From Thermomicrobiales bacterium (GTDB lineage Bacteria; Chloroflexota; Chloroflexia; Thermomicrobiales; CADCWN01), in contig JAUJMV010000002.1 in assembly GCA_030446685.1 (NCBI GenBank), positions 140,878 to 204,877 of the forward strand: a stretch of DNA of 64,000 nucleotides. The letters are read 5' to 3'. The first letter of the stretch is position 1, and each line of letters starts with the position of its first letter. The notes beneath the pieces were generated by a model. That model did not search any database. It was given only the letters and a program-made list of their open reading frames with translations, and was not told the DNA's origin. Below, piece by piece: positions 11,648 to 20,806 of this stretch. The position numbers were made by a program, and so were the translations under genes.

Positions 11648-11744
11648 GCGAGTGCTTGCGAGTGCTGAGTGTCTATCGGTTGGCCGTGGGGGTACGGCAT
11701 TCGACAGCGGCCCGGCTCAGCACTCGGCACTCAGCACTCAGCGC
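11648..11744. repeat. heptamer-array hairpin, unit GAGTGCT
   Basis: gcgagtgcttgcgagtgctgagtgtc at 11648-11673 versus gctcagcactcggcactcagcactcagcgc at 11715-11744. It starts 2 nt after the SDR stop and ends about 13 nt before the ACAD start. Confidence 0.8.
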
Positions 11745-12540: not shown

Positions 12541-12620
12541 CCACAGAGGACACAGAGATCACGGAGAACGAAGGAAAAACGAGAATATCGCGATCTCTGT
12601 GTCCTCTGCGCCCTCTGCGG
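12541..12620. repeat. heptamer-like hairpin, units CAGAGGA/CACAGAG
   Basis: cagaggacacagagatc at 12544-12560 pairs perfectly with gatctctgtgtcctctg at 12592-12608, and a further ccctctg unit follows. Lies between the QOR stop and the SDR start. Confidence 0.75.
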
Positions 12621-12642: not shown

Positions 12643-13647
12643 TTACCCGCCGGCCGGCTCGTCGAGGAGGACGACGGCGCCGCGACGGCCGGGCGCCTCG
12701 GCGTGGCGCGCGGCGGCGGCGACCTCGGCCAGCGGGTAGGTGCGGTCCACGGCGGGGGTGAAATCGCCGCTCTCGACGAGGCCGAGGACCGACCCGACCG
12801 CCGCGCGGACCCGCTCCGGCGGCGTCTTGCCCAGCCAGCGGGTGAGCCAGAAGCCGCGCACGGTCAGCTCGCGGAAGAGGAGCAGGCCGGGATCGACCGG
12901 CACCGGCTCCCGCGCGAGGGCGCCGAAGAGGAGCGCCGTCCCGTCGTTCTTCAACGAGGCGATCGCCAGCGCGCCGGTCCGCCCGCCGACCGGGTCGATC
13001 GCCGCGGTCACGCCGCGCCCGCCGGTCAACTCGCGCGCCCGCCCCGGCACGTCCTCGTCGGCGGAGCAGAGGACGTGCGCGGCGCCGAGGGCGCGCAGCT
13101 CGTCCACCTGCTCGCGCCGCCGCACCACGTTGATCAGCCCGAAGCCGCGCGCGCGGGCCAACTCGATCATCGCCCGCCCGAGCTGCGATCCCGCCGCCGT
13201 CTGGAGGAGCGTGTCGCCCGCCCCGAGTTTGAGGACCTCGACCGCCATCACCCAGACGCTGAGGTAGTTGACCCAGAGCGCCCCCGCCTGCGCGTCGCTC
13301 AGCCGCGCCGGGGTCGGCACGACCAGCGCCGCCGGCACGGCGACCCGCTCGGCCCAGGTCCCCTTGCCGGCCGCCGCGCGAGGAGGAGCGTCACGCGGTC
13401 GCCCGCCCCCGGCCCGCTCACCCTCTCCCCGACCGCCTCGACCACGCCGGCCGCGTCGTTGCCCGGCGTCAGCGGCAGGGGCGGCGGCTTGCCGTACAGC
13501 CCGCGGATGTTCATCAGGTCGGACGGGTGGATGGCGCGCGCGGTCAGCCGCACCAGCACCTCGCCCCGCCCCGGCGCGGGGTCGGGCAGTTCCTCGACGC
13601 GCACGACATCGGCCGGCTCGCCGAACTGGTGGACGCGCGGCTTTCAT
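12643..13647 (-). CDS. NADPH:quinone oxidoreductase / zinc-type alcohol dehydrogenase family, about 2 apparent frameshifts
   Basis: VRVEELPDPAPGRGEVLVRLTARAIHPSDL... (ORF 13299..13604) and the C-terminal 320 aa of ORF 12643..14382 (LQTAAGSQLGRAMIELARARG). Confidence 0.75.
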   Translation of the reverse strand: MKAARPPVRRAGRCRARRGTARPRAGAGRGAGAADRARHPPVRPDEHPRAVRQAAAPAADAGQRRGRRGRGGRGEGERAGGGRPRDAPPRAAAGKGTWAERVAVPAALVVPTPARLSDAQAGALWVNYLSVWVMAVEVLKLGAGDTLLQTAAGSQLGRAMIELARARGFGLINVVRRREQVDELRALGAAHVLCSADEDVPGRARELTGGRGVTAAIDPVGGRTGALAIASLKNDGTALLFGALAREPVPVDPGLLLFRELTVRGFWLTRWLGKTPPERVRAAVGSVLGLVESGDFTPAVDRTYPLAEVAAAARHAEAPGRRGAVVLLDEPAGG

Positions 13648-13655
13648 CACTGCTC

Positions 13656-13859
13656 CAGACGCGGGCTGGCGAACGGGAATCGCGCTTGGGTGTTCGTGCC
13701 GCGGGTCCGTTGCTCCGACACCGGGCCGGCCGCTCGCCGTCAGACGCGGGCTCCCCGCTTTCGCGACGTTGGAATCGCGAGGCGCGATGGGTGTGGCGCG
13801 CGCGGTCGCCCGAGAGGGGGGTGCTCCGCGGGTCGACACCGCGACCGGCCGCTGGCCGT
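13656..13859. repeat. degenerate tandem direct repeat (units of about 85 and 119 nt) in non-coding DNA
   Basis: Both units begin cagacgcgggct and share ggaatcgcg, gggtgt, tgctccg, gacacc and ccggccgctNgccgtcag blocks. Confidence 0.5.
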
Positions 13860-14099
13860 CAGGCGTCGTTGGGGCAGCGACCCCGCCGGCCACACATTCG
13901 CGCGGTCGCTTCTTCGACAATCCGCGCGCTTTCGCGATGACTACCGATCGGTGACGGGGGTATCCCGCGCGATCGCGGGGCGCGAGCTGGCGCTGATCGC
14001 CACCCTGCACACCCGGCCCGGCGCGGTGCGCGTGCTGCACGTAACGCGCTCGTCGGCAGCGCGCCGGCCGGCCCTTGCCGCCCTGCGCGCGCAGTTCCG

Positions 14100-14165
14100 C
14101 GCCTGGTGGTCTCCGCTTCGACCGTTGGCCGTTCACCAGGCCGTCGCGCCGCCTTGAGCACCTGG
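14100..14165. repeat. degraded duplicate of the SDR (14606-15384) 3' end plus its adjacent repeat arm
   Basis: ccgttcaccaggccgtcgcgccgcc...gcacctggcc matches 14600-14650 (gcgttcaccaggccgtcgcgccgcc...gcacctggcc). Confidence 0.6.
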
Positions 14166-14396
14166 CCTGACGCCACAATCGGCCGGCGGAACGGTTCGTT
14201 TCGCGCTTTCGCGGCCGGATCGCGCCGGTAATCGCGCGGGCGGCGCGCGACGACCGCTCTGCGCGTGCCGACCGGGATCGGCCACCCGGCCCTTCGAGCG
14301 GACGGTGCCGGCCGGCGCGGGATCCCGCGCGACGGGGCGCGCGACGGTTCGCGGCGGTGACGACCGCCGCGCGCGCGATCACCTGGCGGCAATCGG

Positions 14397-14564
14397 TTAC
14401 CCCATCTTCGCAATGAAGTCGAGAGACGCTCGCGGGCTGCGCGTAGTTGCCCTTCGAGCCTCCGTGACATCGGCGGTGCGATCATGCGGCGATTGCACCA
14501 ACCGGATCACGCGCAGTGCGTATGCCTTCGTCCTCCGTTGCAGATCGCCGTTGCTCGCCGACAT
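14397..14564 (-). pseudogene. four-helix-bundle protein (23S rRNA intervening-sequence protein family) remnant
   Basis: Own translation gives MSASNGDLQRRTKAYALRVIRLVQSPHDRTADV...RASLDFIAKMG*. It matches the remembered family pattern ...ERTKxFALRIIRLVxSLPK...GANYRAAxRARSxADFIxKMGI. Internal deletion or frameshift and a 3' truncation. Confidence 0.55.
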
Positions 14565-14582
14565 CGCGCTTGCACCGCCCCT

Positions 14583-14610
14583 GTTCCGCGTTCGCCGTTC
14601 CGCGTTCACC
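14583..14610. repeat. single heptamer array, unit GAACGCG (as gttccgc on the plus strand)
   Basis: gttccgc gttcgcc gttccgc gttcacc. Overlaps the stop codon of the SDR at 14606 and lies 19 nt from the four-helix-bundle remnant start. Confidence 0.7.
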
Positions 14611-15384
14611 AGGCCGTCGCGCCGCCGTCCACCACCAGCACCTGGCCGGTGACGTAGCTGGCGGCGGCGGAGGCGAGGAAGAGGGCCGCGCCCTTCAGTT
14701 CGCCGGGGCGGCCGAGGCGGCCGAGCGGCACGTCGGTCTGCATCTTCTCCTCGCTGCGGCCGATCACCGCCTCGGTCATGCGGCTGGGGAAGAAGCCGGG
14801 CGCGATCGCGTTGACGCGGATGTTGTGGCCCGCCCACTCGGTGGCGAGCTGGCGGGTGAGGGCGATCACCGCGCCCTTCGAGGCGTGGTAGCCGGCGGCG
14901 CGCAGCACCTGGGGCGGGGCGCCGAAGAGGCCGGCGACCGACGCGGTGTTGACGATCGCGCCGCCGGTTCCCCGCGCGATCATCTGGCGCGCGGCGGCCT
15001 GCGACACCAGGAAGGTGCCGGTGGCGTTGGTGTCGACCACCTGGCGGAAGCGCTCGACCGGCATCTCCTCGGCGGGCGCCCCCAGGAGACGCCGGCGTTG
15101 TTGACGACGACGTCGAGCGCGCCGTGCCGCGCCACGATGCCGTCGATCAGCGCGCCGACCGCCGCCGGGTCGGTCACGTCGCAGACGGCGGCCTCGACCG
15201 CCAACCCGGCCCCGCGCAGCCCCTCCTCCGCCGGGCCGAGCCACTGCTCGCGCCGCGCGGTGATGATGACCGTCGCCCCCGCCTCGCCCAGCCCCTCGGC
15301 GATCTCCAGCCCCAGCCCGCGCGAGCCCCCGGTGACCAGCGCCACCTTCCCGCGTAGGTCGAACAGCTCTCTGACGTGCGGCAT
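14606..15384 (-). CDS. SDR family oxidoreductase (gluconate-5-dehydrogenase-like), one apparent frameshift near 15095
   Basis: GKVALVTGGSRGLGLEIA and YHASKGAVIALTRQLA. Pieces in ORFs 14980..15429 and 14606..15448. Confidence 0.8.
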
Positions 15385-15627
15385 CCTTGTCCTCCTGGGC
15401 GCGGAACGGCGAGCCCCTCCAGGGGGCAAGTGGCGGAACGTGGAACAACCGCTGGACCGCCGCGTTTGGCCCCTATGGTACCTCGCCGCTGCCGCTCCGG
15501 GCGACTACGCTGCCGGGCGCGCGATCGATCCGCGCCCGCTACGGCGCGGATGACGGCAGCGGGCGGCGTAGGTGCGCGGGGCGTTGAACGGCCACCGGCC
15601 CCGCCCGTAACGCCCCGGCGCGATGAT

Positions 15628-18185: not shown

Positions 18186-19661
18186 TCATTTGAGGAGGTC
18201 CTCCAGCACCAGCTCCGCGGTGATCTCGCCGGAGAGGAGGACCAGCGGGATGCCGCCGCCCGGCTGGGCGCTGCCGCCGGCGAAGTAGAGGCCGCGGACC
18301 TCCTCCGAGCGGTTCGGCGGGTGGAAGAAGGTGCTCTGCGACCACTTGCCGGAGAGGCCGAAGATCGAGCCGAGGTTGTTGTGGTGGCGCTCGGCGAAGT
18401 CGAGCGGCGTCCAGCGTTCCTCGACCACGATGCGCTCCGCGAGGTCGGCCAGGCCGAGGTCCCGCACCCTGGCGATCAGCAGATCGCGGTAGGCGTCCCC
18501 CTCGCGCGCCCAGTCGAAGGCGGGCGTGATGTGGGGGACCGGGGCGAGGACGTAGAGGGCGGACGAGCCGGGCGGGGCGAGCGCGGGGTCGGTGCGCGCG
18601 AAGTCGCCGATGTAGATCGTCGGGTCGGCGGGCGGGCGCTTCTCCCCGAAGATGCGCGCCATCTCGCCGGCGTAGTCGGCCGGGAAGAAGACGTTGTGGT
18701 GCTCCAGGCCCGGATAGACGCGGTCGACGCCGAGGTAGAGGATGAAGGCCGACGACGACGGCTCGTAGCGCGCCAGCCGCGCGTCGGTGTAGCGGCGGCG
18801 CCAGCGCGGGTGGACGAGGTCGCGGTAGGTGTGGACGAGGTCGGCGTTGGAGACGACCGCGTCGGCGGGGATGAACTCGTCGTCGGCCAGGATCACGCCG
18901 CGCGCCCCGTCGCGCCCGACCGCGATCTCCTTCACCGGCGCGCTGTAGCGGATGGCGACGCCGCGCCGCACGGCCAGCGCCGCCAGTTCCTCGGCGATCG
19001 CGTGCAGGCCGCGCCCGCCGCGCGCGAACCAGACGCCGTAGACGAACTCCAGGTAGGGGATCGCGGCGTAGGCGGCCGGGACCTGGGTGGGGGGGGTGCC
19101 GACGTAGATCGACTTGAAGGTCATGATGTGGCGCAGGTGGGGGTCGCGGAAGTAACGGCGCATCCGCCCGTCGAGCGAGCGGATCACGTCGAGCGTTAGG
19201 CCGGCGCGGGCGACGCGCGGGGTGAACATCTGGCGCGGGCCGTTGAACGAGCGGCGGAAGAAGTAGGCCATCAACTCGTCATAGATGCGCTCCGAGCGGG
19301 CCAGGAAGGCGAGGAAGCCGGCCACGTCGCGCGGCTCGAGCGCGGCGATCTGGGCGACGTTCCGGCGCAGGTCGGTGCCGAGCCGCAGCTCGACCCCATC
19401 TCGGAAGGCGAAGCGGAAGGCCGGCTCGCACGGCACCAGCTCGAGGTGGTCCGCCAGGCACTCGCCCGACTCGCGGAAGAGGTCTTCCAGCAGGTGGGGC
19501 AGGGTGAAGATGGTCGGCCCGGTGTCGAAGCGGAAGCCGCCGCGTTCGAGCGTGCCGAGCTTGCCGCCCGGCCGCGCGCCGCCCTCGACGATCGTCACCG
19601 CGCAGCCGGCGTTCGCCAGCCGGATCGCGGCGGAGAGCCCGCCGAGCCCGGCGCCGATCAC
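18186..19661 (-). CDS. crtI: phytoene desaturase family FAD oxidoreductase; annotated GTG start leaves a very short N-terminus
   Basis: (V)IGAGLGGLSAAIRLA dinucleotide fold; C-terminal YFAGGSAQPGGGIPLV. In-frame upstream codons read RTVVV, so the true start is unclear. Confidence 0.85.
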   Translation of the reverse strand: MIGAGLGGLSAAIRLANAGCAVTIVEGGARPGGKLGTLERGGFRFDTGPTIFTLPHLLEDLFRESGECLADHLELVPCEPAFRFAFRDGVELRLGTDLRRNVAQIAALEPRDVAGFLAFLARSERIYDELMAYFFRRSFNGPRQMFTPRVARAGLTLDVIRSLDGRMRRYFRDPHLRHIMTFKSIYVGTPPTQVPAAYAAIPYLEFVYGVWFARGGRGLHAIAEELAALAVRRGVAIRYSAPVKEIAVGRDGARGVILADDEFIPADAVVSNADLVHTYRDLVHPRWRRRYTDARLARYEPSSSAFILYLGVDRVYPGLEHHNVFFPADYAGEMARIFGEKRPPADPTIYIGDFARTDPALAPPGSSALYVLAPVPHITPAFDWAREGDAYRDLLIARVRDLGLADLAERIVVEERWTPLDFAERHHNNLGSIFGLSGKWSQSTFFHPPNRSEEVRGLYFAGGSAQPGGGIPLVLLSGEITAELVLEDLLK

Positions 19662-19694
19662 GACGACGGTGCGGCCCTGTCGAGCGCGCCGGGT

Positions 19695-19892
19695 GAACGC
19701 GGAACGCGGAACGCGGAACGCGGAATAACGTTGGCGGAATCAGGAGCAGACATCGGGGGAATGGTCATGCTCTTCCATCACTACTCGGCCTCGCAGCTTG
19801 TCCGCATAATGTGTCGCCAGGGAACTCTTGCGCTTATCCCCAAGTGTTCCCCAGCCCTTCGTTCCGCGTTCCGCGTTCCGCGTTCCGCGTTC
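19695..19892. repeat. heptamer-array hairpin, unit GAACGCG x4-5 per arm, 128-nt spacer
   Basis: gaacgcg x4 + gaataac at 19695-19729 versus cttcgttc + cgcgttc x4 at 19858-19892. The left arm is 34 nt upstream of the crtI start and the right arm lies inside the 3' end of the UbiA-like ORF. Confidence 0.9.
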
Positions 19893-20806
19893 ATCGTCGC
19901 CCACGCCAGCGCCGCCGCAGTCAGCGCGGTCAGCGCGACCATCAGCGCGCCGGCGACCGGCCAGGGGATCACCGGGCGCTGCTGCCAGATCAGCGTCAGG
20001 GTGATCGCCGCGCCGGCGGCGATGTTGAGCGAGAAGAAGGCGCGGTAGAGGCGGTGCGCCAGGTCGAACGAGCGCCCGCCGAGCAGGAAAGCGGCGACCA
20101 GCCCGGCATAGACGATGAAGAGGAGCGCCAGGGCCGGGACGGCGCGCAGGGTCGCCGCGCCGGCCAGGTAGAGCGCCAGTGCCAGGAGGGCGGTCGGAGT
20201 CGCGCCGAGGGCGACGGCGACGGTGCGGATGCCGGCAGCGCGGTCGGCGGGAAGGTCCTGGATCGCGGTGAAGGCGTGCGAGGCGATCGCCCAGAGCGCG
20301 AACGCCCCGACCGCCGCCCAGGGCGTCGGGGCGACCCCGTGCGCCAGCGCCGAGACCAGCAGCGAGCCGGCGTAGAGGACGTTCGCCAGGGAGTCGAGAC
20401 CCGGCCGCCCCTTCAGGCGCGGCGGCGCGCTGTAGGCGAGGCTCAGCGCGAGCAGGCCGGCGAAGGCGAGGGCCGCGGCGGGCGAGCGCAGCGCGAGGAG
20501 GAGCGGGAGCGCCGGCAGGTTCCAAGCGAGCATCAGCCAGGTGAGCCGGCGGAAGTTGCCGGGGTGGACCAGCAGCGCCCCCTCCGCCGAGTCCTTGCGC
20601 GCGTTGCGCAGGTCCGATTCGTAGTCGAAGATGTCGTTGACGCCGTGCAGCAGCAGGTTGTAGGGGAAGGTGAAGTAGGCGATCAGCAGCACGGTCGGCA
20701 GGTCGAGGCGCCGCCCGGAGAGCAGCCAGCCCCAGGCGACCGGCACCGCCGTGTTGAACCAGAAGAGCGGGCGCGAGATCGTGACCAGCGCGCGAAACGA
20801 GAGCAT
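19781..20806 (-). CDS. UbiA-family prenyltransferase (lycopene-elongase/hydratase-like), C-terminus reads through a repeat arm
   Basis: NDIFDYESD (NDxxDxxxD) with multiple TM helices. The last ~35 codons (...MNAERGTRNAERR...) are repeat-derived, so the real C-terminus is doubtful. Confidence 0.75.
   Translation of the reverse strand: MLSFRALVTISRPLFWFNTAVPVAWGWLLSGRRLDLPTVLLIAYFTFPYNLLLHGVNDIFDYESDLRNARKDSAEGALLVHPGNFRRLTWLMLAWNLPALPLLLALRSPAAALAFAGLLALSLAYSAPPRLKGRPGLDSLANVLYAGSLLVSALAHGVAPTPWAAVGAFALWAIASHAFTAIQDLPADRAAGIRTVAVALGATPTALLALALYLAGAATLRAVPALALLFIVYAGLVAAFLLGGRSFDLAHRLYRAFFSLNIAAGAAITLTLIWQQRPVIPWPVAGALMVALTALTAAALAWATMNAERGTRNAERRAGEHLGISARVPWRHIMRTSCEAE

Follow-up and report, generated by a model that had tools for sequence, protein, structure and literature searches.

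A probable fossil of a hairpin cassette carrying a four-helix-bundle gene at an operon junction of a Thermomicrobiales bacterium

The spacer between SDR and QOR

Two genes, SDR (SDR2) and the quinone-oxidoreductase-like QOR, are separated by 0.95 kb of non-coding DNA in the window, the stretch of 64,000 nucleotides of Thermomicrobiales DNA analysed here. What is this spacer, and how did it arise? The ORFs within 3 kb on either side of the locus are SDR, QOR and galK. The GC content of the window is 72%, therefore coding frames can be recognised by third-position GC. In the GC3 frame plot QOR (12643–13647, minus strand) and SDR (14606–15384, minus strand) had values of 0.95–1.0. The plot was flat over positions 13650–14600: no phase dominated, and no coding signal appeared between the QOR start at 13647 and the SDR stop at 14606, in agreement with the initial annotation, which had seen no convincing frame on either strand.

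We propose, with a probability of roughly 0.8, that the spacer is the fossil of a hairpin cassette similar to the intervening sequences (IVS) of 23S rRNA, in which a four-helix-bundle (4HB) gene of the PF05635/TIGR02436 family lies inside inverted arrays of 7-nt units. Such a wreck accounts for a gap that is otherwise puzzling in the genome annotation.

The SDR-proximal part of the spacer contains a short ORF (14397–14564, minus strand), previously interpreted as a decayed 4HB gene of the 23S-IVS family. Its 55-aa product had no match in Pfam or NCBIfam even at E 10. The check originally proposed, comparison of the remnant with the PF05635 and TIGR02436 models, thus gave no match, whereas a homology search and a custom HMM did; the remnant falls below the curated cutoffs because it is too short and damaged. 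For the homology search the longer window ORF 14397–14837, limited to residues 88–146, was used as query against 5.8 billion sequences. All 75 homologs of the remnant were PF05635 proteins, the best being P0001 (E 8e-11), and an HMM built from the 75 matches had a sole match in the six frames of the window, the remnant itself (E 2e-10). P0001, the intact ortholog from the same site, clears the cutoffs of both families (PF05635, 62.6 bits vs 33.8; TIGR02436, 86.3 bits vs 24), and its closest solved structure is 2RLD (E 1.2e-18). No protein more than 80% identical to P0001 was present among the 5.8 billion sequences, and no near-identical copy was found elsewhere.

By these homologies ORF 14397–14564 is a true remnant of a PF05635/TIGR02436 4HB gene, and the family assigned to it initially stands. 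Codons 1–25 are identical to those of P0001. Relative to the intact gene the remnant has lost one Leu codon by a 3-nt deletion and a net ~33 nt over codons 36–60, and it terminates after ...FIAKMG. The internal damage described earlier is therefore present as deletions; the 3′ truncation described with it is not, the 3′ third of the gene persisting at 14193–14396.

The intact cassette in soil relatives and its decayed copies in the window

P0001 is encoded on L001, a 950-nt soil-metagenome contig (run X2). From the SDR 3′ end through the arm into the 5′ part of the 4HB gene, L001 and the window agree at 236 of 236 bases. The order in L001 is SDR 3′ end, arm, intact 120-codon 4HB gene and, 4 nt after its stop codon, the inverted arm GTTCCGCGTTCCGCGTTCGCCGTTCCGCGT. 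The arms pair as a perfect 23-bp stem, and an irregular unit, GAACGGC, is mirrored in both of them. In the RNA of the intact cassette the 23-bp stem closes around the whole ORF (fold z = −4.09). The initial annotation had taken the adjacency of gene and arm to be meaningful and had advised comparing the same intergenic region in relatives; L001 justifies both, carrying at the same junction an intact, hairpin-armed 4HB gene between inverted GAACGCG-type arms.

In four soil runs from two studies there are contigs that agree fully, or almost so, with the window on the SDR side of 14465; beyond this point they depart from its spacer and continue with the 4HB gene. The run X2 version is L001 itself. 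The relatives' contigs stop inside the arms, and the sequence past the right arm is known from a 30-letter loose end. The QOR-proximal loose end of run X2 reads ...CATCACTTCTCCAAACGCGGA. In the run X2 contig the QOR start codon is followed by CACTTCTCCAA and then by ACGCGGA..., which places arm-like sequence 11 nt from the QOR ATG. The QOR N-terminus of this relative, MKAVRVHQFGEP, is intact, and the relatives' QOR, 11 nt after the arm, has its own Shine–Dalgarno-like GGAG. In the intact state, as reconstructed from the relatives, the left arm starts within the SDR stop codon, the 4HB ORF fills the loop and an arm-like end lies near the QOR start; with the arm beginning in the stop codon and ending 11 nt before QOR, the cassette thus fills the gap from stop codon to ribosome-binding site.

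Copies in the window were defined by collinear same-strand blastn matches between the intact cassette and positions 13600–14700. The spacer consists of two full-length decayed copies of the cassette (A and B) and one partial copy (C), arranged in tandem, with a duplicated piece of the SDR 3′ end. From SDR to QOR the features are the following.

14606–15384, minus strand: SDR (SDR2), upstream gene; frameshift at 15078 (C5 run here, C6 in relatives)
14583–14610, minus strand: left arm of copy A; identical to L001 510–535
14565–14582, minus strand: short leader from the left arm to the 4HB start codon; identical to L001 536–553
14397–14564, minus strand: 5′ part of the 4HB gene of copy A (remnant ORF, 55 codons)
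14193–14396, minus strand: diverged, non-coding 3′ part of the 4HB gene of copy A; 125 of 157 aligned bases identical, many gaps
14186–14192, minus strand: solitary gcggaac, final unit of the right (partner) arm of copy A; aligns to L001 921–927
14067–14190, minus strand: copy B, SDR 3′-end fragment (~60 nt), decayed left arm and first 4HB codons
13746–14066, minus strand: copy B, decayed 4HB body; z = 4.8, 0/300 shuffles
13657–13745, minus strand: partial copy C, decayed right arm and 4HB 3′-end remnant, next to the QOR ATG
13645–13656, minus strand: QOR start codon (13645–13647) and 9-nt linker up to the decayed arm
12643–13647, minus strand: QOR, quinone-oxidoreductase-like downstream gene; frameshift at codon 4, another near 13330

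The arm at 14583–14610 reads GTTCCGC GTTCGCC GTTCCGC GTTCACC on the plus strand and (T)GAACGCG GAACGGC GAACGCG GAAC on the minus strand. The overlap of this GAACGCG-type arm with the SDR stop, noticed from the start, is exact: of the TGA at 14606–14608 (TCA on the plus strand), the GA is supplied by the first unit of the arm. Positions 14465–14564 match the relatives without exception apart from the 3-nt deletion. The 3′ part of copy A has a GC content of 0.78 vs 0.59 in the intact gene. Within it, 14199–14235 is a recognisable remnant of the 4HB 3′ end (78% over 41 nt), adjoining the gcggaac at 14186–14192. This lone unit had been pointed out as lying where a partner arm would be expected, and it proved to be the last unit of that arm.

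The SDR-proximal part of copy B (14067–14190) aligns at 69.6% over 135 nt (blastn, E 1.5e-10) and contains a 42-nt direct repeat at 83% (D1), which substantiates the degraded second SDR 3′ end with arm reported before. Further into copy B, 13892–13940 is 77.6% identical to L001 738–783, and a decayed right-arm unit lies near 13742–13760. Matches of 13988–14039 to foreign metagenome contigs were judged to be chance similarities of GC-rich sequence. The decayed right arm of copy C occupies 13657–13686 (ACGCGGGCTGGCGAACGGGAATCGCG on the plus strand), and the copy belongs to the 85/119-nt degenerate direct repeats (D4, I5). The degenerate tandem repeats described at this end of the spacer are real, extend over 13657–13865 and represent duplicated right-arm and 4HB 3′-end material.

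Semi-global alignments compared with dinucleotide shuffles gave z = 10.8 (0/300), 4.8 (0/300) and 3.8 (1/300), the last two values belonging to the 4HB body of copy B and the 3′ part of copy A. The GC content of the decayed parts is 0.74–0.78, which is the level of the host and fits long residence without selection. The right arms in the window are cut down to 1–4 decayed units, and the left arm is intact; arm pairing amounts to 17 nt at 82% across 913 nt, and the RNA of the wreck folds with z = −1.13. Agreement with the relatives is now confined to the SDR-proximal left arm and first third of the gene. The element is dead here: a tandem duplication took in ~60 nt of the SDR 3′ end as well, and the copies then drifted to the high GC of the host, losing their right arms and reading frames.

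Armed genes, gene-less hairpins and the break at position 14465

Ten independent loci of the nearest 4HB relatives, 58–86% identical to each other, were sampled. Period-7 inverted arms surrounded the gene in all ten, with alignment scores of 29–66. Among 400 random 360-nt control segments the mean score was 17.5 and the maximum 32, and none of these segments matched the eight strongest loci. The prediction that intact family genes are flanked by heptamer arrays thus held for each of the ten loci sampled. The arm units vary between loci (GAACGCG, GAGCGAC, GAATGCG/GAGTGCG, GATTGCG, GAATTCG), nearly all arms of the subfamily being GAnnGCG variants. Several loci resemble the site in the window in that the TGA ending the upstream gene is fused to the first unit, and many database proteins of the subfamily have N- or C-terminal extensions that are translated arrays (e.g. 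MRNAECGMR, GNAERGTR). The GC content of the 4HB gene is below that of its flanks in 10 of the 10 loci (L001, L002, L164–L181), e.g. 0.59 vs 0.74. Members of the subfamily that are 65–80% identical occur in Chloroflexota, Acidobacteriota and others, which suggests that it has spread horizontally while under strong purifying selection.

Some loci have arrangements of their own. In L183, a 72%-identical member, the arms at 280–830 are of GAACGCG type but reversed relative to the gene (CGCGTTC/GAACGCG), and the arm with a 16-nt motif, acatccgacttcggca, is directly repeated twice downstream. In a Chloroflexi-type contig (L174–L176, 1–330 and 1201–1560) two armed 4HB cassettes lie on either side of one short-chain dehydrogenase gene. 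L173 and L181 contain orthologous cassettes with 86% identical proteins, the same neighbours and a common left arm, GAGTGCG. Their right-arm units differ (CGCACTC vs CGCAATC), therefore arms can change their unit on one side.

The window contains further heptamer hairpins, with a different unit at nearly every locus.

Other hairpins (n = 6, spacers of 39–134 nt): 18054/18152, 19695/19860, 30797/30925, 49554/49669, 50903/50993 and 58891/58962

These had been suggested to be carriers emptied of their gene, an interpretation not supported by our results: the six spacers contained no trace of a 4HB gene at the protein or DNA level (best match 19661–19777, E 3.4, not significant). A clean empty hairpin did not arise by decay at the SDR–QOR locus either, where a wreck of 425–530 nt is left per copy and the right arms decayed too. 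Both results accord with a different explanation, to which we assign somewhat less than an even chance. It holds that heptamer hairpins are autonomous intercistronic elements (acting in RNA processing or stability, or terminator-like), that 4HB genes settled in their loops later and that the gene-less hairpins of the window never held a gene. Gene-less inverted heptamer arrays are also common in Xanthomonas (PMC4692102), and the short spacer of the hairpin at 19.7 kb has been kept, with small deletions, in the run X2 relative. The same explanation has difficulty with the arms being present on every sampled gene of the 4HB subfamily (10/10) and with the irregular arm units of L001 and L167, which are mirrored in both arms and argue for joint movement or joint evolution of gene and arms. 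Moreover, no hairpin was seen both filled and empty at one site. The cassette reading, for its part, is weakened by the fact that an empty SDR–QOR junction was not found in the scans of the genome collection (with SDR) and of metagenomes (with QOR), the nearest genome having no QOR.

The hairpin at 19695–19892 is built of the GAACGCG unit found in the cassette arm and has a 134-nt spacer of 56% GC. In another soil relative 219 letters are replaced by 237 unrelated ones. The soil runs are very rich in GAACGCG arrays (depth >600). Within 19726–19892 a UbiA-like ORF (19781–20806, minus strand) runs through the right arm and stops inside the spacer, and a possible crtI start codon lies in the spacer, its frame passing through the left arm. 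This hairpin was considered as a second instance of the TGA-in-arm junction and rejected, the TGA there being out of frame.

Weaker hairpins with partial heptamer arrays are present at the other two junctions of the operon (11648–11744 and 12541–12620; junctions QOR/SDR1 and SDR1/next gene). The best SDR match in the genome-collection scan, 79% identical, was in a Thermomicrobiales MAG (L004, 4698–6335), where just 21 nt separate SDR2 from the SDR1 ortholog downstream of it, with neither QOR nor hairpin between them. The 21-nt gap opens with TGAATTGCGGAG, which resembles a single heptamer unit. As both QOR and hairpin are missing from L004, they appear to be additions in the lineage of the window. 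L004 was rejected as an empty-site control, since it contains no QOR and no cassette. The sole good QOR ortholog in the metagenome scan (64%) sits in another gene context.

Upstream of 14465 not a single substitution separates the window from run X3 over 652 nt. In the zone 14400–14464 it differs from the relatives by deletions only (65 of 65 aligned bases identical), and past this zone ~80% of aligned bases are identical, with many gaps. The abrupt drop at 14465, from 100% identity to ~70–80%, most probably goes back to recombination between an intact copy and an older, decayed one, or to a deletion between the two. The junction, including the deletion-only zone, could also be a consensus artefact instead of natural decay.

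In its full form the artefact explanation states that one intact cassette is really present, and that a strain mixture and the hairpin repeat led to a chimeric or poorly polished consensus, from which both the apparent decay of copy A and the frameshifts of the neighbouring genes stem. Several details are in line with it. Besides the deletion-only zone, the window is the shorter sequence at length differences in 13.6–15.1 kb when compared with Illumina-type contigs (13637 TA, 13714 CC, 14490 AAT, 15078 C), and the middle of the spacer (13744–14464) was found in no public run. Nevertheless, we consider it improbable. The assembly is not error-prone overall: at 15.6–19.1 kb there are 0 indels over ~3.5 kb of coding sequence relative to contigs of the same strains, therefore the frameshifts do not come from general assembly error. 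The many substitutions in the diverged parts, with a GC shift from 0.59 to 0.78, are not an error pattern, and three collinear copies at unlike stages of decay are hard to obtain by misassembly. In addition, the decayed sequence next to QOR is confirmed by run X1, in which an independent contig covers 13560–13743 with 3 substitutions and 4 gap positions relative to the window, does not have the 119-nt duplication and runs on into 4HB-like sequence.

The frameshifts in SDR2 (15078), SDR1 (~12110) and QOR (13637, ~13330) are seen in the window and in none of the close relatives. Either the operon seems to be decaying in the strain of the window, or the consensus is locally poor.

That the decayed DNA has been domesticated as promoter, leader or attenuator of QOR is very unlikely: the window and the run X1 strain show conservation over the 100 nt nearest to QOR, but the spacer has no Rfam match and no exceptional fold, the intact relatives' QOR already has its own Shine–Dalgarno-like sequence next to the arm, and QOR itself is frameshifted in the window.

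Known systems and a possible mode of action

The closest published parallel of the proposed cassette is the 23S IVS (Coxiella burnetii helix 45, Leptospira; Warrier et al. 2016, PMC4990558). In Coxiella the IVS of 23S rRNA measures 428 nt, contains tandem heptamers and a 28-bp stem, and is excised by RNase III; its S23p ORF is undergoing reductive evolution, one strain having a 176-bp deletion (PMC4990558). The cassette resembles it in the S23p/PF05635 ORF located in the loop of a ~430–450-nt element, in a long stem made by terminal inverted repeats, of 28 bp in Coxiella and 23 bp in L001, in the tandem heptamers of the stem region and in the ORF being prone to decay. The long enclosing stem is present in L001 and has been lost in the window. 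In contrast to 23S IVS, which occupy helix 9, 25 or 45, the cassette lies between two protein-coding genes, SDR and QOR; no rRNA match was found in 13000–15500, and the Rfam search returned nothing relevant. The arms of the cassette consist wholly of heptamer arrays, and the element in the window is a tandemly duplicated wreck. RNase III excision at this site would be assumed by analogy.

Inverted pairs of heptamer tandem repeats (GGGAATC) have been described in intergenic regions of Xanthomonas (Rehm et al. 2015, PMC4692102), and these arrays are transcribed (PMC4692102). Like the arrays considered here, they are convergent, have around four 7-nt units and favour gaps between co-oriented ORFs, within 50 bp of stop codons. 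They differ in having one dominant unit per genome, whereas in the window nearly every locus has another unit, and the Xanthomonas paper names no gene family and discusses G-quadruplex formation (PMC4692102).

Avd, the accessory protein of DGRs, belongs to the same Pfam family (PMC10053308). The 4HB fold family is thus shared, and its members bind nucleic acid and act with structured RNA (PMC10053308). Unlike in DGRs, there is no adjacent reverse transcriptase and no TR/VR-type repeat at the locus, the flanking genes being SDR and QOR. The combination of intergenic hairpin-forming repeats with a candidate cognate protein gene is reminiscent of REP/RAYT (REPIN) systems. The cassette, however, comes without a RAYT-type transposase, its hairpin encloses the protein gene, and its units vary between loci. 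A full-text literature search yielded no description of 4HB genes in heptamer hairpins outside rRNA.

By analogy with ORF-bearing IVS of 23S rRNA, the cassette would be co-transcribed with its neighbours, and its long stem would be cut by RNase III. After such a cut the two cistrons would no longer be coupled, and the 4HB message would be either set free or destroyed. A search of RNA runs returned none containing the locus. The 4HB protein may act on the repeat stem: solved relatives are pentameric, and the DGR cousin Avd binds nucleic acid.

A wider reading, which we offer as speculative and rather doubtful, is that armed 4HB cassettes form a self-maintaining system. They would spread horizontally and settle both in rRNA helices and in operons, in the gaps from stop to start codon; the 4HB protein would recognise the stem of 7-nt repeats, and at one site there would be turnover by duplication, decay and recombination with fresh copies. 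If this were true, the locus would hold three generations of turnover side by side, old GC-ameliorated wrecks lying beside a low-GC copy whose counterpart in sister strains has remained intact.

For more than 25 years it has been unclear where the 23S IVS and their S23p proteins come from and what they do (PMC4990558), nor has it been explained why bacterial genomes contain heptamer tandem repeats in excess (PMC4692102). The SDR–QOR locus joins these two puzzles outside rRNA, with the same gene family inside a heptamer hairpin at an ordinary operon junction. Decay at the locus took the form of GC amelioration, arm loss and tandem duplication. With natural alleles at one site, intact in the soil relatives and dead in the window, the cassette represents a concrete, testable system.
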